DNA of 43,029 nucleotides from Escherichia coli (GCA_033901515.1 GCA_033901515.1_4984.1), one strand, 5' to 3'. Positions 650 to 35,502 are shown, numbered from the stretch's first letter. Notes: a model not told the origin generated them from the sequence alone. Program-made: numbers and translations.

Positions 650-2659
650 TTACGAGGTCTTCAATATACCAGCAGTACGCAGACTAGCCATGAGGTTGTT
701 CACAGCTACACTAGCTGCGTCTGTACCAGAGCTATTACTTACTGCTGCAGCAGCATTAGGGCCGATTGCAATGAATCCAGCAGGAGCATCAGAGGTGGGT
801 TTAGTAGTACTAGCACGAAGCTGCCCAGTGCTAGACATCCAAACGTAATAACCGTTAAGCCGAATGTAACCATCCCGGTAGTCTCCTCGGAATTCAATAC
901 CACCTTTCTGCACTGGACCAGCCCAGCCGGAACCTGCATCAATTGTACCACGAAGGCTGTTAGGTTCCATGAACGGATTCGTTACGTTGTTGCCCAGTTT
1001 AATGCTCGCACTAACAGTGCTACGGTCACAGCACCCATTCAGGATAACGAAGGAGTCCTGCTGCGCAATTTGCAGGGTGATGGCGCTACTGCTAGTACTA
1101 TCACTTTGAATGCTGATACGGTTGCCTGTTCCCAGGTTATAGATCTCCCCGGTAACTGGGTTGCGCGAGCCACCGCCAAGACGACCTGCAATATTAGCGC
1201 TTGCACCGGTACCTAAACCATCTGTGCGGATACTGAACACGGTACTATCACAGCCCAGAGCTGTGAAGCTCTTAACGTGGCAGTCCTTAACAGTACAGCG
1301 CACCAAATCCCGTAGCTCCATAGGCCAGCGCGGAGTAGTTACATCACACAGAGTAGTGCGGAAGCACCCTTGCAAGAACACCTGCGCTCCCACGATGTCC
1401 TTGAACATACTATCGGCAGCACCATAGAACCACACACCTCGTGTAACTGGGCTACGAGGCGCCTCACAAGTCACACCCTGCAGCTGCATGTCCCGGTTCC
1501 AGGAGTAGTACGGGGTATAAAAAGCATCTACGAACACAGCATAATCACCCTGGGTACCTGTAGCCACAGTGTTCGTAACGGTAAGGCCACGAATCTGTGC
1601 ACCTGGGCAGGACATAAACTTGATCGCGGCATTATCTGTAACCGCTACACTACCACCGGCTTTGATATCCTGGACACGCATACGCCCAAAACAGTAGCTG
1701 TGGTTGATCGTACTGGGCTCCTGTACACCGCGGGCGTAAATACCGGTACTAACCAGTCCGTAAGTAAAGGCATAGATTAGTCGATCAATCTCCATACCCC
1801 GGACTTCTGGGTACGCCGCCTGACGAATCTCTAGACGCTTAATTCGCCCACCACCGTGTACACTAGACCGCCCAATCCAGCCAGTCTTAACCAGCCAAGG
1901 GTTGATGTGTTCATAATACAGTGCCTGGTCTAGTACTAATGCAGTACTGCTTACACTCTCTACTCTCGCAAACTCCATGTACGCAGTGTGGGCCTCAACG
2001 GAATCAGTGCCAGAGATATTCTCAACACGAATTATATCGCCCGCTTTAAACATACCCTCGAAATTGCCAGGTATGCTGTAGGTCCCGGCACTGATTGTAT
2101 CTGACAGTTGCACAGCAGCTTCAAGTCTACGGAACACCGGAGAAGTATATGTGTACCTGGTGCCTGTAGCAATAGTTAGGGAACTACTGCTAGCAGCGGC
2201 TACAACTGCGAAATCCGTACCAATCGCGTTCCCACGCACAGCACTGCCGCCAATGGTATCGTCCAAACTGATAGCGATAACATCACCAGCTCTAAATCCT
2301 GAGAAGTCTCCGAGGAACTCTGTGGTGCCGACTGGAACATCCTCCCATCCTAGGGAGGTTGCTACAGAATAATCTGAGCTAAAGTGTTCACCCTGCAGCA
2401 CGAGCGTAAAGTCCAGAAATGCACCTGGCGCTACCTCTACGTCTACACCGTAATCCAGAGTGATCTTATCACTGGTGTAAGTGCCCTCAGAGAACTTACA
2501 AGGACAGTTGCGGGACTTTGCTGCAGCTAAAGCATCTATGATACACGCAGCGTTAGCACTAGAGGAATTATCAGGGTTATAGCCATACTGCTCTGGGGTA
2601 GTGAATCCTAAAGGATCCAGTACCGGTGCACCTGCTTTTACCATTTTAACTAAAGCCAT
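650..2659 (-). CDS. Second receptor-binding protein / tailspike (candidate depolymerase), terminal gene
   Basis: 669-aa ORF; ATG at 2657-2659 preceded by AAGGTGGGAG. Lacks the T7 gp17-like N-terminal anchor seen in the 6626..8950 ORF. Call rests on size and position after the lysis cassette. Confidence 0.55.
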   Translation of the reverse strand: MALVKMVKAGAPVLDPLGFTTPEQYGYNPDNSSSANAACIIDALAAAKSRNCPCKFSEGTYTSDKITLDYGVDVEVAPGAFLDFTLVLQGEHFSSDYSVATSLGWEDVPVGTTEFLGDFSGFRAGDVIAISLDDTIGGSAVRGNAIGTDFAVVAAASSSSLTIATGTRYTYTSPVFRRLEAAVQLSDTISAGTYSIPGNFEGMFKAGDIIRVENISGTDSVEAHTAYMEFARVESVSSTALVLDQALYYEHINPWLVKTGWIGRSSVHGGGRIKRLEIRQAAYPEVRGMEIDRLIYAFTYGLVSTGIYARGVQEPSTINHSYCFGRMRVQDIKAGGSVAVTDNAAIKFMSCPGAQIRGLTVTNTVATGTQGDYAVFVDAFYTPYYSWNRDMQLQGVTCEAPRSPVTRGVWFYGAADSMFKDIVGAQVFLQGCFRTTLCDVTTPRWPMELRDLVRCTVKDCHVKSFTALGCDSTVFSIRTDGLGTGASANIAGRLGGGSRNPVTGEIYNLGTGNRISIQSDSTSSSAITLQIAQQDSFVILNGCCDRSTVSASIKLGNNVTNPFMEPNSLRGTIDAGSGWAGPVQKGGIEFRGDYRDGYIRLNGYYVWMSSTGQLRASTTKPTSDAPAGFIAIGPNAAAAVSNSSGTDAASVAVNNLMASLRTAGILKTS

Positions 2660-6324: not shown

Positions 6325-6626
6325 TAGACAATTCCTTCTAGTAAGTCCTCAGAGTCTGAATCACTAATCTTGTTTAAAATCTCTTTCTTACGCGCCTCTC
6401 TGCGCGCCGCTAGTTCGTCATCAAATTCGTCGCGAAGGTCCTGCATCTCCTCGGAATCTGCATCCGCGGTGATATCATTATCCTTCAAGAACTTAGCAAT
6501 GACTGATTTATCTGCGGCGGGGAGCGGCACCTCGTCTTTTTTGGACTGCTTGATTTCTTCAATCAAGGCCTCAGTGAACATGCGGTGCAGCTCCGAGAGG
6601 CGACTGCGTTTAGCCGCCCCTGCCAT
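6324..6626 (-). CDS. Terminase small subunit (DNA maturase A)
   Basis: Tool ORF starts at TTG 6641. I prefer ATG 6624-6626 (RBS GGGGGA, overlaps tail-fiber stop as TAATG), giving about 100 aa with an acidic C-terminus. Position as T7 gp18. Confidence 0.6.
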   Translation of the reverse strand: MAGAAKRSRLSELHRMFTEALIEEIKQSKKDEVPLPAADKSVIAKFLKDNDITADADSEEMQDLRDEFDDELAARREARKKEILNKISDSDSEDLLEGIV

Positions 6627-8950
6627 TATATAGTCCCCCAAGCTTGTCTGTATACAGCGTAATGCAACGCACTATTTAGTAGGGATGTATAGTCCCCCGC
6701 TACGAACGCCTGACTAGCCTCATCCCACTTACGTACCACAGAGTAAGATGCAGCAACGCTGTGAACTTTATAGTAAGCACCTCCTACTAAAATAAACTCC
6801 CCAGCACTTAGTCCGGACGATCCCAATGCTATAACCGTCTCGTTTGCAACTATGCTGTTATATAGAGAGTAGGCTGGACCCCAACCGCTATTGGATGGAA
6901 GGGTCCCTTCCCCGCGTACGAAATTATCCTCCCCTACTGTAGCGGAGTACATGCAGTATGGCGCCTCTGCCTTAAACCTATAGAACCGGGTATTGCCACT
7001 GGATGGGTACCCCCTAGGCGTAGTATTGTATGGGATGCCGTTTGTTTGCACTCCCCGATAATATTGGCGCTCCATATAAGAGTAAACACAGCCATTTGAG
7101 GTCTTAGGCACATACAGGAAGCACCTACCGATATTCTCGTGTGTGTTCCTGCCTATATGTACATAAATCATCCCCCCGGTAGTCGCAATAGAATCTATAC
7201 AGTTACTGAACATGTTTGAGTCAATGTTGCAGTAACCGACAGCGTTCTTCATCCGTACACCTTGGCTTGAGGTCGAGGACGCCCCAATAAATGTATTAGA
7301 TTTAACGTTGACTTGATACGCAGCTGTGTTTATACGGTTTAAGAATACCCCCGAGTTTGAAAACATTTCGAACCTGCAGCCTACTACGTCTGCGTTACCG
7401 CAAGACTCTAGAAACACCCCCACGGATACGTTGCGAGCCACTACTCCGCTGATTACTACACTATTCGCATAGCCTTGAGTAGTGGATGAGCCCTCATTCC
7501 CGAAGATATCTATAGCATTGTCCGTAATATTCTGTAGGATACAATCTGATATGACTGCACCATCTGGACGCTCACACTGTATTCCTATGTACCCAGTGTT
7601 AGTCACTACACAACCACGCACTGTCAGATTAGAGCACCCATAGGTGCCTGCACCTGCCCGCCTAAAGTAGAGGCCCCCGGAAGGACTACTAAGTACGCGC
7701 ACGCCTTCACACACCACGTTAGTGGAGTCGAGTATATTAACGCACGTAATACCAGTACCAGCATTCTGTGCAACGTTACCGTCGAAGGTTATATTTGAGA
7801 TTGTGACAGAATCCGCACTGCCGTCCCAGTTGGTCAATATAGCCCCAGAAGAAGTTCCGCCAACACCGCCATTCAGGGTTATAGTCCCCCCACCGGTGAG
7901 AGTCACCCCAGAGCGTATATTTAGGGCGGACCGACCAGCAGATAGCTCACCAGCAACCGCCAAACTGTTAGAGTTTAGGGATACACGGTAATGCCCGGTG
8001 GCTAGCACCGTAGTAGGACCTGAACCTCTAACAGCATTAATATGTGCAGCATCCAGGGCAGCCTGCAAAGCCATACGCCAATCCCCGGTACTATCCGCAT
8101 AGGCTTCTGGATAGATGAATGGTACTCCACCTAAGTAGTTAAATCCATTATCCGAACTTAGCAGCCCTAAAATACTTGCAACTGCACCTGTGTCAACATC
8201 GGTATCTACACCAATAGTCATATCTACTAAGGTGCCTGCTGGTACAGTTTCTGCGAACGTCACTGTGCCGTTACGGATACTATAAGAATAGCCCGCGGTC
8301 TGAGTTACTCCATTTAACCTAATCTTAGCCTTAGTAAATGGTACTCCTGGGGTAATGGTGTTCGTGTCAGCTGGCACTACAGTCCACCACGGGAAGCTAT
8401 TAGTGTTAGCATTGAAGAACGTCTGCTCTAGGTTGGTAGTGCGTATATCCAGAGCGTCATCTGCAGCTTTGCGAGCAGCTGCCTCTGCGTCAATACGCGC
8501 GTCCAGGCGAGCATCCCCGGCATCAACATACTGCTTATTAGCAGCGTCGCGTGCATCCACAGGGTCACCCAGGTTAGTGATGCGGTAACGGTGCATGTTA
8601 ATATCGCCATAGAAACCCTCGATAGAGCGCCCTTCAACCAGCTCTTGAGCCAGGTGCAGGAACTGCGTATTCTGGGTATCTACGTTACCTTCAATGAACG
8701 GGGCACCACTAGCAAATTCAATGTAGAGGTACTCTCGTGCAGTCTTACGAATAAGAAGCACCACTGTCTCTGCAGACAGTGGGGAGTTCAGACGAATGTT
8801 GGTGGAGCTGGTCCAAGTGAAGGCTGTAGTCTCAGAACCATCTAAGTAAACGTGAATATAAGATTTATCCAGGTACTCGATATCACACTGGATATCCCGA
8901 GTACCTGTAGGCTTTACCGACTCTTGCCAGCTGTATGCCATATTAATCAT
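6626..8950 (-). CDS. Tail fiber / tailspike with T7 gp17-like N-terminal anchor and beta-helix-like body
   Basis: 774 aa; N-terminus (DIEYLDKSYIHVYLDG ... HRYRITNLGDPVDARDAANKQYVD) resembles the T7 gp17 N-terminal tail-attachment domain from memory; remainder is Gly/Ser/Thr/Asn-rich repeats (NITFDGNVAQNAG ...). Confidence 0.75.
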   Translation of the reverse strand: MINMAYSWQESVKPTGTRDIQCDIEYLDKSYIHVYLDGSETTAFTWTSSTNIRLNSPLSAETVVLLIRKTAREYLYIEFASGAPFIEGNVDTQNTQFLHLAQELVEGRSIEGFYGDINMHRYRITNLGDPVDARDAANKQYVDAGDARLDARIDAEAAARKAADDALDIRTTNLEQTFFNANTNSFPWWTVVPADTNTITPGVPFTKAKIRLNGVTQTAGYSYSIRNGTVTFAETVPAGTLVDMTIGVDTDVDTGAVASILGLLSSDNGFNYLGGVPFIYPEAYADSTGDWRMALQAALDAAHINAVRGSGPTTVLATGHYRVSLNSNSLAVAGELSAGRSALNIRSGVTLTGGGTITLNGGVGGTSSGAILTNWDGSADSVTISNITFDGNVAQNAGTGITCVNILDSTNVVCEGVRVLSSPSGGLYFRRAGAGTYGCSNLTVRGCVVTNTGYIGIQCERPDGAVISDCILQNITDNAIDIFGNEGSSTTQGYANSVVISGVVARNVSVGVFLESCGNADVVGCRFEMFSNSGVFLNRINTAAYQVNVKSNTFIGASSTSSQGVRMKNAVGYCNIDSNMFSNCIDSIATTGGMIYVHIGRNTHENIGRCFLYVPKTSNGCVYSYMERQYYRGVQTNGIPYNTTPRGYPSSGNTRFYRFKAEAPYCMYSATVGEDNFVRGEGTLPSNSGWGPAYSLYNSIVANETVIALGSSGLSAGEFILVGGAYYKVHSVAASYSVVRKWDEASQAFVAGDYTSLLNSALHYAVYRQAWGTI

Positions 8951-21147: not shown

Positions 21148-22743
21148 TTAGCCCGGTAACAGGCCTAGTTGTTGTCCTGCTACGGTAGGATCCGCTGCCT
21201 GGAGATCTTGTACCTGAGACTGTGCTTGTGCTGCTGATGCCGCCGCTGCATTATCTTGAACTTGCTGCTTCTCTTGCAGTTGCTCTTCTGTGAGCATGAA
21301 CGGTCCACTTACAATACCGTATGCATCCAAGTACCAATCTACGCATGCATCCTCATTAAAGCGGGGAGTAAGCTGTTTGAGCACAGGAATAGCCAGCTGC
21401 ATAGCCTGGGTAGCTTCTAGCAGTTTATCTGCTGCTGCTGCTTTAGCTAGTGCTGCAGTACCTACCATCACGTTGATATCCACTACACCCTCGGTGAGGT
21501 ACACCTTGAACTTAGGATATGCCACGATAGTATACAGGTACGCGAGCTTACGCAGCCAGGAGTTGCTGAGGATGCTGAATCCACCACCCATAGCGTACTC
21601 TGCCTCTTTAGCATTCTGACGAATCTCATAAGCAGTTACACGCTCACCCTGTCGAGCATTGCCGGTGTACATAAACGCACGAGCCAGTTTCTGCTCAAGC
21701 ACCTGAATGTCGCTAGCAATCCACTGAATCTTTTGAGCTGCACCACCCTCGTAAGCTGTTACAGGGGACTTGGTGTTACCATTACTACCACCACCACCAA
21801 CCTGTACGGCCTCACCAGTCTCGGCTTGAGAGAACTCGTCCACATCCAGTCCAGAACTAGCATCGACCATAGGGATAAGGCGTGAAGCCTCAATCTCGTA
21901 GTTGGTCAACGCTTCGGTCAGCACAGACAGTCGCGCAAAGTCGCCCGCATAGTCTTCCACCAGACCGCGTCCGTAGTGTTCACCGTTAACCAGGTTCCAC
22001 ACCAATACGTTATACGGAAGTTCCAGCTCAGGGTAGGTGCTGCTCTCGCCTAGGCGACGGCCATCAACTTCTTGATACACCTCATAGCTTACTGCTTCTT
22101 CTCCATTTGGAAGGTGCTTAATCTTACGACAAGCGGCAGTGTAGATATCAATGTCGCTGTATGGGTCTCGACCATTGTAGTGTGCTTTTTGAATGTCTTC
22201 TGGGAGGTCCTGGATGCTGGCGCGCTCTTTGATAATGAGTCGCAGCACGTTCCCGCTACCATCCCTTCGAACGGTAAAGTTACGGACCGAGTAGATAATA
22301 GACTTCCCGGTTCTTTCATCGATGTACTCCAATGCGTTCCCGGTGATAAGCAGCAACTTCACAGCTTGAAGCTTAGCGGCATACCCATCCTTCTCGAATA
22401 CCTTCTGAGAGGCAGTATTCTCTACCTCGGATAAACGGGATTCTGCAGTGCTAGAACTTCCTAGGCTACTAATAAAGTTGTCAAGGGCTGCACTCTTAGA
22501 GAACCGGAAGAAGCTAGTGCCTTGTGGGAACAACGCCCCTACAATTTTAGTCGCTGCAGTATTGACTAGCTGAGCACCTGTACTCTGATAGTCTCGACTA
22601 AGCTGCATGCGTCGCCCATCAGTGTAAAGCTCTCGGGTAAAGATTGTAGGTAGCGTCCACTCAGCAAATTTCTCTGACGCATCCAGTACGCCAGCATCCT
22701 GATCCCCCAGGAACAGCTCTGCTAATGTCTTTTTATAGTCCAA
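21148..22743 (-). CDS. Portal / head-tail connector protein (gp8-like)
   Basis: 531 aa (T7 gp8 is 536 aa); apparent TTG start at 22741-22743 with strong RBS AAGGAGGAAG; no in-frame ATG in the first ~60 codons. Confidence 0.8.
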   Translation of the reverse strand: MDYKKTLAELFLGDQDAGVLDASEKFAEWTLPTIFTRELYTDGRRMQLSRDYQSTGAQLVNTAATKIVGALFPQGTSFFRFSKSAALDNFISSLGSSSTAESRLSEVENTASQKVFEKDGYAAKLQAVKLLLITGNALEYIDERTGKSIIYSVRNFTVRRDGSGNVLRLIIKERASIQDLPEDIQKAHYNGRDPYSDIDIYTAACRKIKHLPNGEEAVSYEVYQEVDGRRLGESSTYPELELPYNVLVWNLVNGEHYGRGLVEDYAGDFARLSVLTEALTNYEIEASRLIPMVDASSGLDVDEFSQAETGEAVQVGGGGSNGNTKSPVTAYEGGAAQKIQWIASDIQVLEQKLARAFMYTGNARQGERVTAYEIRQNAKEAEYAMGGGFSILSNSWLRKLAYLYTIVAYPKFKVYLTEGVVDINVMVGTAALAKAAAADKLLEATQAMQLAIPVLKQLTPRFNEDACVDWYLDAYGIVSGPFMLTEEQLQEKQQVQDNAAAASAAQAQSQVQDLQAADPTVAGQQLGLLPG

Positions 22744-22752
22744 GCTTCCTCC

Positions 22753-23016
22753 TTACAGACCCAGGGGATTGCTCTGCCCTGCCTGTCGCCGTTTCTTCTG
22801 CTCAGACGTAATTGCATCTGCAGATGCAGAGGCCGCGCCGGATGGGTCTACCTCTGCAATATTATCAGCTGCGCTGTTAGCCCCTAAGGCTGCCTGCTGT
22901 TTTGCTGCTTCAGCCTGCTGCTCAGCCATGCGCTGCTGTTGCTCTAATCCTTCATTATCAGTAAGGCCGAGCATATCCGTGGCCTTACCTAATAGTTTAC
23001 CTAATCCACCACTCAT
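22753..23016 (-). CDS. Hypothetical protein (87 aa, Gln/Ala-rich)
   Basis: ATG 23014-23016, RBS GAGG; overlaps upstream stop as ATGA. Confidence 0.5.
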   Translation of the reverse strand: MSGGLGKLLGKATDMLGLTDNEGLEQQQRMAEQQAEAAKQQAALGANSAADNIAEVDPSGAASASADAITSEQKKRRQAGQSNPLGL

Positions 23017-23453
23017 TTTGACCTCACTAAATGATAAGTTGTTTTATACGTGTTCGGAGATACCCCACGACTTATAGCTATACGTCCAGCTCGCAGGCAC
23101 TCAGCCAGTATGTGCAGCCCCTTCATAACTACAGTCATTGCTCCACTATTCCCCGGTTTCAGTACGAAGAAGTCTGTGAACAATACGGGTTCTGCATAAT
23201 GGCAGTCCTTTACAGCTTCTGGGTAGTAACTGACAGCACCAACTAAACCACCTTGGGAGTCATAGACTCCTAGTATATGCTGTTTACCTAGTATACTTTC
23301 CAGTACTCTACAGTAGTGTTGCTCCAGGGACAGGCCCCGACTAATGCCGTGGCCTAGTTCGTGCAGTTGCTTCACTGCGTCTGTAATATCGTCAGACTTA
23401 TGCAGAACCTTGAGAGTATAGTCGGAAGTTTTACTAGTGTGTTTTAACTTCAT
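23013..23453 (-). CDS. Hypothetical protein (146 aa), first gene after the RNAP block
   Basis: I prefer ATG 23451-23453 (MKLKHTSK...) preceded by GGAGTAGGA; the tool start at 23516 would overlap the upstream gene by 40 nt. Confidence 0.5.
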   Translation of the reverse strand: MKLKHTSKTSDYTLKVLHKSDDITDAVKQLHELGHGISRGLSLEQHYCRVLESILGKQHILGVYDSQGGLVGAVSYYPEAVKDCHYAEPVLFTDFFVLKPGNSGAMTVVMKGLHILAECLRAGRIAISRGVSPNTYKTTYHLVRSK

Positions 23454-23475
23454 TCCTACTCCTGTAACATTAAAT
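23454..23475 (-). promoter_or_regulatory. Conserved 17-bp motif also present in the terminal repeat; candidate phage promoter or end-related site
   Basis: Plus 23454-23470 tcctactcctgtaacat is identical to plus 16-32 and 42968-42984; minus strand reads ATGTTACAGGAGTAGGA immediately before the ATG at 23453. Confidence 0.4.
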
Positions 23476-23476
23476 T

Positions 23477-23815
23477 TTAGTAGGGTGCCCAAACCGGTAT
23501 ACCGGCCTTCCTGCACAGTTCAACCATACCGGCGGTGCCTCTTCCTCCAGGAAAGGCGACACAGTATTCTGGAAAGGCTAGGGATATCATAGCGGCGTTC
23601 CTGCGCATACCTGCAGATTTACCTTGTGCATCCCACAGGGCAGGCATACGCAGAACAAAAATACCAGATTCCAAGGCCCACCTATCTGCCAGTGCGTCAG
23701 CTCCCCTGGCATTCCCGTGTATCACTACAGATGGTTTGTTGGGTAGCATATCCATTGCGGTCTTTAGCGCTAAGTAGTCTGTGTAATCGCGCCCGCCTGT
23801 TACTAGTACTCGCAT
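23477..23815 (-). CDS. SLOG/LOG-like Rossmann-fold nucleotide-binding protein (DUF2493-like)
   Basis: 112 aa; VLVTGGRDYTDY, GNARGADALADRWA and FPGGRGTAGMVE resemble SLOG superfamily signatures (LOG PGGxGTxxE-like). From memory, not verified by search. Confidence 0.45.
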   Translation of the reverse strand: MRVLVTGGRDYTDYLALKTAMDMLPNKPSVVIHGNARGADALADRWALESGIFVLRMPALWDAQGKSAGMRRNAAMISLAFPEYCVAFPGGRGTAGMVELCRKAGIPVWAPY

Positions 23816-23824
23816 ACAATACTC

Positions 23825-26293
23825 TCAGCAGAAGAAGAACGGAGATTCTAGCACTTGCCGGATGTCCAGAGTACCAACCGCAGGCATATCCAGGTCCGTC
23901 AGGTCTGCCCCCGCTGCAGCAGCAGCTCTAGTAATATCTCCCAGAAGGTCGTGCTCCTCATACAGCTTCACAAACTGTTCGCGGATGTGTCGGTGCAGAG
24001 CATCAACATCGGATGCATGAGTAGCCAAGGAGTCGTGAATAGGCACAATATCAAGTCCCTCCGCCGCGCAGAGTACCATCATCAAGTGCGTACTATCCAG
24101 ACTGTGCACAAAGTTCGGAGCGATCCCAGAGGCTGCCTTGCGCTTATTACACGTTTTAAAATCACGGTTATGCACCAGTACAGCGGATAGGTTCATACAG
24201 TCAATACGGACACGTACCTCTTCCCTCTGAGAGTACCGGTTCATCACCAGCCCGCCCAGCGGGGTCTTCCACTGCAGGTGCTGGCTAGCAGGTACGCGCC
24301 TAGCTAGATTCTGCAGATACCCCATAGCTGCGGCAGCTGCCGGGTTAGCTTCCTCAATAGCGCTACGCATTCTAGGGGCAAGGTAGCAGGATAAGTTCCA
24401 GAGACTGTGCGTGTCTGTTCCTTCATACCCCTCTTCACAGGCCCCTGCAAAGATGTAGTCGCTGCAGCTGCGCACCGTGGCGCTGTAGAAGTAGGTCATG
24501 CTAGGACGCTTGGTCATGCTTCGCGTGATTTCGTTCTCTCTCCAGTATGTGCTCTGGATAACGAAATCCTCTTTGTCCAGGTCCAGTATCACCTTCTCGT
24601 CCGTACGGCGCTTCACGTCCATATACAGGTCCGCTTTCTTGTCGTTACCCTCCCAGTACAGGTTAGTCAGGCGCCCGCCTACAGGGTCTCTCAGGAGCGC
24701 TGAGAGGTGCTGACCACCTGAGTTTGTAGCATCCATAGCAACTGGGATTCGGCTAATATACTCTTCTGGGCATCCAGAACGTACCGCATTAACCAAGTCA
24801 ATAGCGGCTGCCAGGAAGCACCAAGGGCTGTCGGCGGAGGTAAAAGCAGGGCAATCAAAAGGAGAATCCGCGAGCTGCTCAATCTCTGCAAAGTTTGCAT
24901 CAACCCAAGCTGCACGGTCTTCGAATAGGGTTTTGTCATAACCAAAGCAGGTAGCGACGTGCACTTTAAGCCAGAATAACCCCCTCTCTCCCAGAGGTTT
25001 ACCTCGTCCGAATTCAAGAAGTGCCTTCTGCAAATCAGAACCTTGTGGGTGCAGAGAGGACTTGAAGTACAGCCGGTACCGCCAATCCACACAGGTTGGG
25101 AAGTACAAGGCTTTCTCATCTTTGAATTCCTCTGCCATCTCTAGCGTGGTCAATAGGCTACGTAGTTGCGACACACGTTTACGGTCGGCGCTGTACCATA
25201 AGGACATACGCGTCTTCCACTCTCCGAAGCGGTCGAGTTCCTCCTCGGTGTAATTCTCTTTTGGTACACCATCTAAGTACCACTCAGGTTTCGGCTCTGG
25301 CACTGAGCGCGGCATACCTACACCAATACCTAAGGCCCGTGCTTCTTGTACCAGTTCCAGTACTCGCTTATTAATGCGATAAGGAGTTTCCTGCGCCTTA
25401 TTAAGTGCCTTCTTGATACCGTCCGCAGACTTAAATGCTTCCGCTACTTCACGCAGTCTGGCGCGGTCAATGTGCGAGTTGTGGTACGTCCCACGGTTAT
25501 CGATTGGGGTGAGGTATCCACCATCCCACAGTGTAGTATGCGACACCGGCGGTACCAGCATCGGAGGCTTCATAGTTACAGTATCAGCAGATTCCACTAA
25601 CTGCTGAAATGCTTCCATAACATTATCTGCGGGATAGAGCATACTCAAGTTCCCGCTACCAGTCTTCCACTGGAACAGCCCTGTCTCAAACACTGCGGAA
25701 CACAGCAGACGTCCCACAGAAATATTCTGAGCGTTGGTCCAAGGCTCATGCCCATAGTGCACGTTCTCAGCGCTGGCGCGGAGCGTACGCAGAATGTGCG
25801 TAGGCGACTTAGTACGGCGCTCAGTGAGGTATTCATATACCCGGTCCATATACGCTGGGGCAACATTACGTAGCTGCAATGCCAGCAGCTCTGATTGTAC
25901 GTTCCTACCCAGTGCAGACATTACCGCCTGAGCAGTCTGGCGGCGACTAGCGGACTCGCCAGGGGCAACACTGAACGCCTCAAACATTGTGCACAGGCTC
26001 AGGGTAGTCAGGACATCCAAGGGAACTAAGCGCAAGAACCGGCGGTACTTTCCGCCAATACCTGGGGCTTTGGTGTTTCGCATTTCATCAATAGCTGTAG
26101 AGGCCACGTCATACGCAGAGGTGAGCATGCGCTGAGTCATTGGCAGGTTCATAATCCCGCCGTTCTGCAGAGCATCAGTAATTAACTTACGAGCACGCTC
26201 AATACCTCGAATTTTATAGGTCTCTTCAAGCTCCAGCTGGCGCTGCACCAGTGCTTCCTCTGGTACTACAACCGTATTCAGGGCGCTAATCAT
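23825..26293 (-). CDS. Single-subunit DNA-dependent RNA polymerase (T7 RNAP family)
   Basis: 822 aa; PVAMDATNSGGQHLSALLRD aligns with T7 RNAP [20 protein letters not shown] (catalytic Asp); IVPIHDSLATH aligns with T7 HDSFGT (second catalytic Asp); RBS AAGGAG. Confidence 0.9.
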   Translation of the reverse strand: MISALNTVVVPEEALVQRQLELEETYKIRGIERARKLITDALQNGGIMNLPMTQRMLTSAYDVASTAIDEMRNTKAPGIGGKYRRFLRLVPLDVLTTLSLCTMFEAFSVAPGESASRRQTAQAVMSALGRNVQSELLALQLRNVAPAYMDRVYEYLTERRTKSPTHILRTLRASAENVHYGHEPWTNAQNISVGRLLCSAVFETGLFQWKTGSGNLSMLYPADNVMEAFQQLVESADTVTMKPPMLVPPVSHTTLWDGGYLTPIDNRGTYHNSHIDRARLREVAEAFKSADGIKKALNKAQETPYRINKRVLELVQEARALGIGVGMPRSVPEPKPEWYLDGVPKENYTEEELDRFGEWKTRMSLWYSADRKRVSQLRSLLTTLEMAEEFKDEKALYFPTCVDWRYRLYFKSSLHPQGSDLQKALLEFGRGKPLGERGLFWLKVHVATCFGYDKTLFEDRAAWVDANFAEIEQLADSPFDCPAFTSADSPWCFLAAAIDLVNAVRSGCPEEYISRIPVAMDATNSGGQHLSALLRDPVGGRLTNLYWEGNDKKADLYMDVKRRTDEKVILDLDKEDFVIQSTYWRENEITRSMTKRPSMTYFYSATVRSCSDYIFAGACEEGYEGTDTHSLWNLSCYLAPRMRSAIEEANPAAAAAMGYLQNLARRVPASQHLQWKTPLGGLVMNRYSQREEVRVRIDCMNLSAVLVHNRDFKTCNKRKAASGIAPNFVHSLDSTHLMMVLCAAEGLDIVPIHDSLATHASDVDALHRHIREQFVKLYEEHDLLGDITRAAAAAGADLTDLDMPAVGTLDIRQVLESPFFFC

Positions 26294-26434
26294 AGGCGCT
26301 TAGTCTCCTTGGTTATGTCCGATATTTCTAACTACTGGTTTCGACTTACCCAGAGATTATACATCGCCAGGTAATCATTAGCGGAGCTTTCGTCGCCCCG
26401 CTCGATTGCTTCTTGCCACATCTTGTGGCACCAC

Positions 26435-26671
26435 TCACTCGGTGTCAATACACTCCCCCTTGTGCTGCTCATACAGCTCTAAGTACTTGTCAGATTTAGC
26501 AATATCCTGCTCTAGCTTATCCTTGTTACCAGCACGGAGTCTGTACTTGAGCCGATTTCCCAGACAGTACCCGTAGAATTGCTCTTGTGTCATGCTGCGG
26601 GCAATCACAGAAATAGCTTCCAAGTCCGGAAAGAATTGGTAGTGTTTAGGCGAATTTACTGCGTCACTCAT
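26435..26671 (-). CDS. DUF3310-like small phage protein
   Basis: 78 aa; SPKHY ... CLGNRLKYRLRAG matches my recollection of the DUF3310 pattern. Confidence 0.5.
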   Translation of the reverse strand: MSDAVNSPKHYQFFPDLEAISVIARSMTQEQFYGYCLGNRLKYRLRAGNKDKLEQDIAKSDKYLELYEQHKGECIDTE

Positions 26672-30667: not shown

Positions 30668-31096
30668 TTAGGCCTCCTTAATAATTTGACTGACGCGAGA
30701 TTGTACTACACCGTATTTCGCAGCAAGCACGTACTGATTAGCGTGTTTAGAACGAGGAACATACTCCCGGCGAATCTGCTCTACAGTAGACTTGGAAATC
30801 TTATGAGCTTCTCGGCCCCTATCTACCTTATCTTGCATGTTGTCTGCCCTGCTGCCCACCAGAAGATGCTCGGGATTAATACAACGGGGATTGTCACATG
30901 AGTGTCTAATCACCTGCCCGTCTATATCCGCATAGGTTATACCGTGGTGGCGGACGTAAACCACTCGATGATATAGGCGCATCTTTCCGTCACGTTTAAC
31001 TAACGCATACCCTCCTTTTAGAAGGCTCCGGCTTTTGCCGTGGTCTATACATTCTGACACTGCATGCCTCTCTTGTGTTGTTCCTACTCGTATCAC
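30668..31096 (-). CDS. HNH endonuclease (free-standing, homing-type)
   Basis: GGYALVKRDGKMRLYHRVVYVRHHG ... VIRHSCDNPRCINPEHLLVGSRADN is an HNH_3-like pattern, with a C-terminal HTH-like segment. Start uncertain: GTG 31096 or GTG 31060 (RBS GAGAGG). Confidence 0.75.
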   Translation of the reverse strand: MIRVGTTQERHAVSECIDHGKSRSLLKGGYALVKRDGKMRLYHRVVYVRHHGITYADIDGQVIRHSCDNPRCINPEHLLVGSRADNMQDKVDRGREAHKISKSTVEQIRREYVPRSKHANQYVLAAKYGVVQSRVSQIIKEA

Positions 31097-33893: not shown

Positions 33894-34229
33894 TCACTTG
33901 ATTGGTGGAATATCAATAGACTCTAGCAGCGGCTGCTGCAGTAGGTAAGTGTTATACTCCTGTATCGCCTGCACCGCCAAGTCCCGCAGTCGCAACGCTT
34001 TGTTTACGTCCCAATCAGTACGAGAGAACACTGCACTGGGGGATACTAGGGAGAATGCCTCTGGGTTAAAGTGAAAGGTAGGTTCCTTTGATTCGACCAG
34101 CTGTATCATCGCCTCGCTTGCGTTACGAACGGTGTATACACCACCCCTATCCACACCGGTACGGTAAGCTGTCTCACGGGCTATGTCAGCATCTCGCCGT
34201 ACTTTATCACCAATTTTAAAATTACACAT
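33894..34229 (-). CDS. Hypothetical protein (about 111 aa) with N-terminal K(I/V)GDKV ... YTV module
   Basis: I prefer ATG 34227-34229 (MCNFKIGDKV..., RBS GAGGGG); shares an N-terminal module with the 36480..36968 protein. Confidence 0.5.
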   Translation of the reverse strand: MCNFKIGDKVRRDADIARETAYRTGVDRGGVYTVRNASEAMIQLVESKEPTFHFNPEAFSLVSPSAVFSRTDWDVNKALRLRDLAVQAIQEYNTYLLQQPLLESIDIPPIK

Positions 34230-35502
34230 TAATCTGCCCCTCATTAAATCGGCATCTACCTGGGTCGAATGCTACCTCGAATTGCAGTAGCGACTCCTTA
34301 CCTGATAGCGCCATCTTGTTCTTAGGTGTACTGATACCGCGGATGTTTTGCATGTGCGGCTGCTCGTTCCTGTCCAAGCACCCCATCATAATTGCCAAGT
34401 CCAAAGCACCTTGTACGCCAATCTTACTCTGCTTCATTGCCGTGAGCGGCGGAAACAGTAGGTTGTAACCTTCGAGTGAAAGCTGCATAGTACCGATAAC
34501 TGCACAATCGTTCTCGCACCCCAGGATACGTAGCTCCTGCCACTTCGCCTCTAGATTCTGGTGTTCACTCTCCATAGTACCGCCACGGATATTAGCCACC
34601 ATGTCTATGATTATTACCGCCGGGCGCATCTCTTCCATGAGCGTAGAGATTTGAGCCATAGTAAGAGAGTGTGCCGCCTTGATACGAATACGGTCGGCCC
34701 TGCCTACTTTCTCCAGATAGGCTGGCACAAACTCTTGCCTACTGTGCCTGTCCTTAATCTCAGCCAGAGTCCAATGCAGCGCCGCTTGATATACCCTCGG
34801 CACTGTACGCGTCGCCGGGCCTTCGTTAACCAACCACAGAATCGGGCGGTCCCCGTATACTTCAGGTTGTTGCTGCATCTGCTTAGCAAAGTCCACGGCA
34901 ATAGCAGCGAGTAGACTAGTTTTACCAGAATCAACAGGGGCAGCAACGGCGATGCAATCACCGCCGCGAAGCCCACGAATGCTATTAGACAGTTGCTCAA
35001 ACACACCCAGTTTAAGTCCGCCACTTTCATCAGTCGCGGCAAGTATTTCATCAACACTTCCGCTCTCCCATTCCAGTAGCGAATCATGAACAGCAGCACC
35101 ATCACCGTACTTGCGCTGGAGGTGTTTCATCTCCAGCAGATAATCAACCTCCTCGCCGTCTTGGTAGCGCTGCGTTAGCGCCGCCACCTCCCCGCTGTAT
35201 GCTAACTCATTCAGTGTCTGAACAATCCCCACCACAGAATCCTGTGGCACGGCTTGTACTCCCCGCATAAGCTCGTCCATAATCACCCGCTCTTCACGGG
35301 ATAGATGTCCAGCACGGAGGTTGAGCATACTCTGCATCGCATCCCACTGCACCTCCTGGTGCTCCGGGTACGTATTCCAGTACAACCCCACCCAGTCCAG
35401 TAGGTTCGAGGTGTCCGGCGCTAGCATGGACTTGGGTATCTGCTCTCGCAGTCGGTTCCAGACCTTCTGCGTGCACATCGCCTTAACTACTATTAGGTCC
35501 AA
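34222..35502 (-). CDS. DnaB-like replicative DNA helicase
   Basis: 426 aa; Walker A AAPVDSGKTSLL; apparent TTG start with RBS GGAGG. Confidence 0.75.
   Translation of the reverse strand: MDLIVVKAMCTQKVWNRLREQIPKSMLAPDTSNLLDWVGLYWNTYPEHQEVQWDAMQSMLNLRAGHLSREERVIMDELMRGVQAVPQDSVVGIVQTLNELAYSGEVAALTQRYQDGEEVDYLLEMKHLQRKYGDGAAVHDSLLEWESGSVDEILAATDESGGLKLGVFEQLSNSIRGLRGGDCIAVAAPVDSGKTSLLAAIAVDFAKQMQQQPEVYGDRPILWLVNEGPATRTVPRVYQAALHWTLAEIKDRHSRQEFVPAYLEKVGRADRIRIKAAHSLTMAQISTLMEEMRPAVIIIDMVANIRGGTMESEHQNLEAKWQELRILGCENDCAVIGTMQLSLEGYNLLFPPLTAMKQSKIGVQGALDLAIMMGCLDRNEQPHMQNIRGISTPKNKMALSGKESLLQFEVAFDPGRCRFNEGQINV

Follow-up and report, generated by a model that had tools for sequence, protein, structure and literature searches.

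In DprA of Helicobacter pylori, Arg52 of a G-S/T/A-R motif gates a small pocket and Arg143 together with Asn144 of an x-x-R-N motif steers one base of single-stranded DNA (ssDNA) into it, and the substitutions R52E and R143E lower the affinity for ssDNA 170- to 315-fold. The DprA/Smf domain (PF02481), which the DprA-like antitoxin ShosA of the Shosta defence system resembles, is longer than 200 residues, and the LOG/PpnN domain (PF03641), whose motif was defined as P-G-G-X-G-T-X-X-E in a paper on H. pylori DprA and carries a catalytic Glu, measures 170-210 residues. The SLOG sensor of ThsA from Thoeris, which binds 3'-cyclic ADP-ribose (3'cADPR), is host-encoded and fused to a SIR2 effector. 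The YpsA-like clade, with Bacillus subtilis YpsA (PF06908, 'YpsA proper'), is marked by a conserved GxD/E substrate-binding signature after strand 2 (PMC6459960), and viral YpsA-like SLOG domains have been predicted to bind or cleave ADP-ribose-derived immune signals (Iyer et al. 2022, PMC9503650); the definitions of SLOG clades used below are second-hand, taken from these two articles among others. Here we compare with these systems a gene for a stand-alone SLOG domain of 112 residues at 23477..23815 (-) of a stretch of 43,029 nucleotides deposited as Escherichia coli (GCA_033901515.1_4984.1), hereafter the window, which constitutes the complete, collinear genome of a KP34-like Drulisvirus (Autographiviridae, Slopekvirinae) with every gene on the minus strand.

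The open reading frame (ORF) opens with ATG, closes with TAA at 23477-23479 and translates exactly as the first-pass annotation, made from the DNA alone, had described it, namely as a protein with VLVTGGRDY at its start and a later FPGGRGTAGMVE (MRVLVTGGRDY...FPGGRGTAGMVE...). That annotation had placed the product in the SLOG superfamily and had proposed profile searches, with DUF2493 named first, and structure prediction as checks, and on this point both kinds of analysis uphold it. The YAcAr family PF10686 ('YspA, cpYpsA-related SLOG family', formerly DUF2493) is matched with 53.7 bits against a gathering cut-off of 28.2 (E=1.9e-14) over residues 1-62, corresponding to model positions 1-64 of 66. 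This model covers the N-terminal half only, and full-length membership was judged by PHROG 289, which is matched over residues 1-109 (E=2.9e-27), and by tblastn coverage, with homologues in 1124 phage records and at least 80% of the query covered in 1070 of them. In the protein collection 3060 homologues were found at E<=1e-3, and PF10686 is carried by all 120 best homologues, 119 of which carry nothing else; a search of the protein against NCBIfam gave no match. Comparison of seven Drulisvirus copies yielded a ratio of non-synonymous to synonymous substitution rates (dN/dS) of 0.01-0.07 in all pairs with dS above 0.2, where dS was 0.24-0.56 and fell inside the range of core genes. This selection is on par with that acting on the RNA polymerase gene (0.03-0.09) and tighter than that on the neighbouring 146-residue gene (0.04-0.24). 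Given the matches to PF10686 and PHROG 289, the many homologues and the low dN/dS, the ORF is a real gene under strong constraint and not a chance reading frame.

An AlphaFold2 model built from 60 homologues, with a predicted local distance difference test (pLDDT) of 97.8 and a predicted template-modelling score (pTM) of 0.90, presents a minimal Rossmannoid beta-alpha-beta core within the three-layer alpha/beta fold of the superfamily. Its nearest structural neighbours are SLOG proteins, headed by ShosA (8zva, score 12.8), TM1055 (1rcu, 12.6) and YpsA (2nx2, 12.5) and followed by DprA (3maj, 11.7), a type-II LOG (5wq3, 11.4) and the ThsA SLOG domain with 3'cADPR (7uxs, 11.3). Foldseek gave weaker matches, yet the top TM-scores go to the same SLOG proteins. 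A PDB search with the single sequence returned nothing, and the profile search returned only non-significant matches to the SLOG-type molybdenum cofactor (MoCo) carrier 3imk (E=0.11), ribosomal protein S3 and DprA 3uqz (E=0.86); no solved YAcAr structure occurs among the PDB sequence, profile and structure matches. Since sequence and fold agree, membership of the SLOG superfamily, together with the YAcAr/DUF2493 family and fold, can be regarded as virtually certain, and the product is a single-domain member of 112 residues that in nothing material differs from the rest of the PF10686/PHROG 289 family.

The residues expected to line the pocket are strongly conserved. In an alignment of 60 close homologues (48-79% identity), G7, G8, R9, G34, G38, D40, W61, G69, N73, G90, G91, G93, T94 and M97 are invariant, and D10, R72 and P89 are conserved in at least 90%. 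They fall into four motifs, the first of which, G7-G8-R9-D10 (GGRD; 23786..23797 (-)), follows strand 1 (residues 2-6) and matches the G-S/T/A-R motif of DprA. Motif 2, G34-N-A-R-G38-A-D40 (GxARGxD; 23696..23716 (-)), lies after strand 2 and aligns with SGLARGID of E. coli Smf. Motif 3, W61...A68-G69-x-x-R72-N73-x-x-M76 (23588..23635 (-)), is contained in a helix (residues 61-80) after strand 3 and matches the x-x-R-N of DprA. Motif 4, P89-G-G-R-G-T94-A-G-M97 (23525..23551 (-)), follows strand 4 as a LOG-like glycine-rich loop lacking the LOG Glu. The residue features described for the superfamily (PMC9503650) are thereby present, with GGRD after the strand of residues 2-6 and W61, G69, R72 and N73 in helix 61-80. 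When the alignment was widened to mycobacteriophage, KVP40, ICP1 HelB and plasmid members, G34, W61, A68, N73 and M76 remained invariant and R72 and G38 were kept in at least 90%, while PGGxGT decays in distant members (PLEESIGT, DGQSNGS, PGNGIT). Because the loop decays while those residues persist, motifs 2 and 3 form the true core of the YAcAr family, the region of motif 3 being the most conserved. Separately, in the orthologue of Klebsiella phage vB_Kpl_K71PH129C1 the otherwise invariant Gly91 of PGGxGT is replaced by Val at codon 91, a change that could either abolish function or stem from an error in sequencing.

Side by side with E. coli Smf, whose corresponding motifs read VVGSR, SGLARGID, FPRRNRII and SGSLVT, with Cys at the position of the LOG Glu, three of the four pocket motifs (motifs 1-3) resemble those used by DprA to bind ssDNA, and as judged from these motifs the pocket would be DprA-like rather than LOG-like. 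Arg9 and the pair Arg72-Asn73, the counterparts of the residues that gate the pocket and steer the base in DprA, are conserved. However, compared with the DprA patterns G-S/T/A-R and F/L/Y-x-x-R-N/D, the phage protein reads G-G-R and G-x-x-R-N, such that the middle residue of the first and the aromatic platform of the second, here Gly69, differ, and SGSxxT of DprA stands against PGGxGT. At the level of profiles the likeness is faint. The DprA profile search proposed in the first-pass annotation failed to reach significance, PF02481 scoring 13.6 bits against a cut-off of 29.6 (E=0.038), and the only other Pfam match outside YAcAr was a sub-threshold one to RMMBL. Together with the appearance of DprA 3uqz, and of no LOG, in the PDB profile search, this match leans weakly towards DprA, below the level of family membership.

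Motif 4 had been read in the first-pass annotation as close to the LOG signature PGGxGTxxE, a claim that does not hold, since the position of the Glu is occupied by the invariant Met97, E99 lies two residues out of register and is not conserved, and PF03641 gives no match at E<=1. Membership of the LOG family was ruled out on the missing profile match and the Met at the catalytic position. This bears on an alternative in which the protein is an enzyme of the LOG/PpnN type, an N-glycosidase acting on nucleotide 5'-monophosphates for salvage or for removal of unwanted or modified nucleotides. The invariant PGGxGT loop does resemble the phosphate-binding loop of LOG proteins, the invariant R9, D40 and N73 with D10 and R72 (at least 90%) could form an active site, and some homologues lie near a dGTP diphosphohydrolase, a ribonucleotide reductase or a 7-deazaguanine cluster. 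However, the catalytic residue is replaced, the domain has some 112 residues instead of 170-210, distant YAcAr members retain the remainder of the pocket without PGGxGT and no LOG chain appears in the PDB profile search even at E<=10, which together make such an enzyme improbable. Still less can be said for GTP binding, which is what the label 'GTP-binding domain' attached to PHROG 289 and propagated by Pharokka implies. Beyond the label itself nothing speaks for it, and the sequence effectively refutes it, as Walker A (GxxxxGK[ST]) and NKxD are absent, the GKS at 65-67 lies inside the predicted helix 61-80 with Leu, not Gly, five residues upstream, and no P-loop GTPase occurs among the Pfam or listed structure matches.

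The genomic contexts of the family in other elements repeatedly involve DNA replication. In Vibrio phage ICP1, the YAcAr domain forms the C-terminus of HelB (L032:1163-2848), a PIF1/Dda-type helicase described as an accessory superfamily 1B (SF1B) helicase that supports replication. In Vibrio phage KVP40 (L033:2992-4640), the stand-alone YAcAr gene 0155 lies 42 nucleotides ahead of the gene for a true Dda helicase (Dda SH3 domain, E=3e-63). Both domains, 33% and 44% identical to the window protein, respectively, come from lytic phages and are linked to DNA replication, and fusion and adjacency together link DUF2493 to SF1B helicases of the Dda type; in the window, by contrast, the domain stands alone after the RNA polymerase gene and the genome map holds no SF1B helicase. 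Elsewhere, the YAcAr gene is located between the genes for a polymerase processivity factor and DNA polymerase (Pseudomonas phage Knedl), overlaps a polymerase-annotated gene (Klebsiella phage KpTDp1), is flanked by helicase and primase-polymerase genes (two viral contigs of 48-55 kb) or, labelled "DprA-like", stands among genes for DnaB, a phosphoribosyltransferase (PRTase)-like protein, endonuclease VII and primase (Mycobacteriophage Maverick). On conjugative elements, where the family is common in leading or transfer regions, it is found beside toprim and strawberry-notch genes or beside SprT and TrwC relaxase genes, and 194 of the 382 plasmid records with the family are predicted to be conjugative. 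A census taken in 70 dereplicated IMG/VR contigs of the two ORFs closest to the YAcAr gene (138 proteins, called by a simple greedy longest-ORF procedure) revealed mostly neighbours without annotation, and the annotated ones were mainly DNA primase, DNA polymerase, endonuclease, helicase, integrase and terminase; no partner is conserved across the 70 contigs, and replication genes are loosely enriched.

Some of these loci have features of their own. In alphaproteobacterial conjugative or mobilisable plasmids (L005:6413-7354 and L007:6431-7342), the protein has about 310 residues, with an unannotated N-terminus of about 190 residues fused to YAcAr, and its gene sits in a conserved trio with those for a strawberry-notch-like nucleoside triphosphatase and a toprim protein. 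In Maverick (gp62-gp60, L009:3180-4375), the PRTase-like gene (weak Pribosyltran and PRTase-CE matches) lies two genes upstream of the 'DprA-like' YAcAr gene, a pair that by analogy echoes ShosT (PRTase) and ShosA (DprA-like) of Shosta. In the IMG/VR contig Ga0485282_000039, a YAcAr gene comes after a gene for a primase-polymerase, and some 2 kb downstream of the YAcAr gene a member of the Sequestin family (PF21825; L031:6192-6446) is encoded.

Based on the correspondence of motifs, the basic charge of the protein (isoelectric point 9.4; family median 9.2), the replication and helicase contexts and the place of the gene at the close of the DNA-metabolism block of the window, we tentatively suggest that the SLOG protein binds ssDNA in a DprA-like manner and is an auxiliary on replication or recombination intermediates. 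It would be a ligand-gripping module of the non-LOG kind, whose pocket takes one nucleotide unit (base and phosphate). The likeliest ligand would be ssDNA, gripped as by DprA and ShosA, with the Arg of motif 1 gating the pocket and the Arg-Asn pair of the helix orienting the base. The protein may then assist a helicase, primase or polymerase as a small auxiliary, or shield ssDNA, and would be of conditional benefit in certain hosts without being essential. Several points weigh against this proposal. With 112 residues, the protein is a minimal Rossmannoid core without the extra strands and the dimerisation and RecA-binding elements of DprA, and compared with DprA and ShosA it lacks a SAM and a C-terminal domain, and neither a dimer nor a RecA interface is known for it. 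A single one-base pocket binds DNA weakly, and DprA of H. pylori depends on a dimer and on more than 15-20 nucleotides. An hhalign comparison of the family profile with the single E. coli Smf was not significant (probability 0.3%, 25 columns, covering GxARGxD only), in line with the PF02481 score below its cut-off. Most census neighbours are unannotated and no partner is conserved, and the literature yields no binding experiment on any YAcAr protein. Finally, the patchy occurrence of the gene in Drulisvirus, described below, suits an anti-defence gene no less than a replication helper.

The GxD/E signature of the YpsA-like clade is likewise present, as G38-A39-D40 with G38 and D40 invariant in the close homologues, and it raises the alternative of a host takeover after the manner of Bacillus YpsA, in which the protein, on binding its ligand, interferes with FtsZ and cell division or with some other process of the host. 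Such an idea was put forward for the prophage YpsA-family protein YoqJ in the YpsA paper (PMC6459960). However, no YpsA-family (DUF1273) Pfam match was obtained at E<=1, the residues of YpsA required for inhibition of cell division are not obviously shared, the taxonomic range differs, the phenotype is documented in Firmicutes only (PMC6459960), and the contexts point to DNA metabolism, for which reasons we consider a takeover of this kind very unlikely.

Within Drulisvirus the SLOG gene is optional. A nucleotide search with the gene alone found it in 43 records at 88-92% identity, and a search with the gene and its flanks retrieved 279 records (about 250 at Drulisvirus-level identity), in which the gene was present in the same 43 only (about 17%; these counts are of records, some phages being present as both GenBank and RefSeq entries). 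The gene follows directly that for the single-subunit, T7-type RNA polymerase (822 residues, 23825..26293 (-); PF00940, E=1.8e-89, and PF14700), which is 94-98% identical in amino acids to the RNA polymerases of other Drulisviruses. In the type phage, KP34, the site is empty and the polymerase stop is followed directly by the 146-residue gene, the junction reading ...TTCTTCTGC TAA AAATTTAATGTTACAGGAGTAGGAATG..., as compared to ...TTCTTCTGC TGA GAGTATTGT ATG...[SLOG]...TAC TAA AATTTAATGTTACAGGAGTAGGAATG... in the window. The optional cassette thus defined against the empty site comprises 348 bp (23480..23827 (-)), made up of a new TGA for the polymerase (23825-23827), the spacer GAGTATTGT of 9 nucleotides (23816..23824 (-)) between that stop and the SLOG start, and 336 sense bases, and the SLOG ORF ends on the very TAA that is the polymerase stop in KP34. 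In other Drulisviruses an HNH homing endonuclease gene is located at the same site, its ORF ending with duplicated 3' codons of the polymerase, which makes the 3' end of the RNA polymerase gene a hot spot of insertion that is either empty or occupied by SLOG or HNH. In Klebsiella phage phi1_146033, for instance, the HNH gene (L002:2229-2705, equivalent to window 23816-23827) ends TTCTGC TAA. Divergence along the locus is mosaic, Escherichia phage Minorna being nearest for the polymerase and not for the SLOG gene, and Klebsiella phage F19 the reverse; recombination within the genus therefore moves the cassette, which, with dS up to 0.56, has long been in the gene pool. No gene tracks the SLOG gene as a partner when the 49 ORFs of the window are compared with four SLOG-positive and four SLOG-negative Drulisvirus genomes, and the SLOG gene works alone or with core or host components.

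Such a distribution would fit the principal alternative. The first-pass annotation had raised the protein as an anti-defence candidate, and in this alternative the pocket sequesters a host immune messenger, for example one of the ADP-ribose-derived Thoeris signals, or cleaves it at the N-glycosidic bond, so that effectors are blocked. It accords with the published prediction for viral SLOG domains (PMC9503650), with an accessory gene at a swap hot spot that is under strong purifying selection, and with a stand-alone product that has no co-varying partner and is small like known sponge proteins. The Sequestin gene 2 kb away in one viral contig, the frequency of the family on conjugative elements and the precedent of the ThsA SLOG sensor, albeit one sharing 13% identity with the phage protein, also count in its favour. 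Against it stands that no Macro, NADAR or Nudix gene was found in the neighbourhoods examined in full, nor among the census families listed (25 of 41 Pfam and 25 of 108 PHROG families). Fusions linked to NAD or ADP-ribose are likewise missing, PF10686 standing alone in all but one of the best homologues, and the PADLOC models give no match to the protein. ThsA-type SLOG domains keep the Glu of the LOG motif, which here is replaced by Met. The SLOG superfamily, DprA and YAcAr are all absent from a structure-guided survey of viral sponges, and a search of the anti-defence literature yielded no YAcAr protein. A weak further argument is that the gene sits at the boundary of middle and late genes, not among the earliest. 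Taken together, sequestration or cleavage of an immune signal is possible, if doubtful. It is compatible with the ssDNA-binding proposal, as the masking of ssDNA by a small protein could be a counter-defence in its own right.

As to its immediate setting, the locus is closest to Minorna (92% nucleotide identity across 22700-26300). No promoter-like or terminator-like site was found on the coding strand in 22600-24400, hence the SLOG gene is probably read together with the RNA polymerase gene on the same transcript. A purine-rich GAGAG overlaps the polymerase stop codon ahead of the SLOG start and is probably a weak ribosome-binding site, which makes translational coupling to the polymerase gene likely; the Minorna record has a ribosome-binding site annotated at the position equivalent to the spacer. 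Downstream, the order is the 146-residue ORF, the 87-residue ORF and then the portal gene. The former two were rightly noted in the first-pass annotation as adjacent ORFs, but neither is wholly unassigned. The 146-residue homologue of KP34 gp38 (23013..23453 (-)) has a GNAT acetyltransferase fold and begins with the ATG at 23453, preceded by AGGAG as ribosome-binding site, a longer GTG reading of 167 residues not being needed. The 87-residue homologue of KP34 gp39 (22753..23016 (-)) matches PHROG 3112, 'virion structural protein' (E=3.7e-25), and was found in all eight Drulisvirus genomes compared. Both are core genes, kept with or without the SLOG gene.

Other parts of the window also vary among relatives. 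Two receptor-binding genes, at 650-2659 (-) and 6626-8950 (-), have no counterpart (at least 50% coverage) in the eight compared Drulisviruses; the protein of 669 residues matches no Pfam or PHROG family, and that of 774 residues combines a T7 tail-fibre N-terminus with a beta-helix. Both are exchanged tail-spike or depolymerase modules, in keeping with a capsule-specific host range. An ORF of 116 residues at 33894-34244 (-) (PHROG 19629, function unknown) is common only to phage Kp2 among the relatives, an HNH endonuclease ORF of 142 residues at 30668-31096 (-) has a patchy distribution, and a fragment of 78 residues of the DUF3310 or gp1.7-like 'nucleotide kinase' type at 26435-26671 (-) occurs in three of eight relatives.

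Proteins 95-99% identical to the SLOG protein, of the same length, position and motifs, had already been deposited for Klebsiella phages F19, phiKpS2, JKP2 and KP1-1 and for Minorna. The JKP2 orthologue is annotated as "YspA-related SLOG family" (PMC10194101) and that of KP1-1 as "DUF2493 domain-containing protein", while RefSeq and Pharokka records carry "GTP-binding domain". The SLOG/DUF2493 identification is thus correct and was already known at the level of annotation, and the idea of an action against immune signals was published in 2021-2022 (including PMC9503650). A search of the literature yielded no experimental study of a phage DUF2493/YAcAr protein. What is added here is modest and consists of the exact bounds and the occupancy of the cassette, the absence of any partner gene, the degree of selection, a putatively DprA-like pocket and the link to Dda-type helicases.

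The family is large: some 2% of sequenced phage genomes encode a member, among them those of mycobacteriophages, T4-like vibriophages, N4-like phages and ICP1, as do many conjugative plasmids. The points on cassette, pocket and helicase narrow the experiments needed to assign a function to DUF2493. A stand-alone DUF2493 domain could, at rather long odds, become the first member of the family shown to be a phage or plasmid counter-defence protein, whether by soaking up or cleaving an immune signal derived from ADP-ribose or another nucleotide, by masking phage ssDNA intermediates from host sensors or by standing in for a labile antitoxin of the DprA-like kind, for example ShosA. The natural polymorphism in Drulisvirus, with and without the 348 bp, would make such a counter-defence role directly testable. 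Drulisviruses are common candidates for Klebsiella therapy, and the SLOG gene would be a useful marker in the choice of phages if it is true that it decides success on defended hosts.

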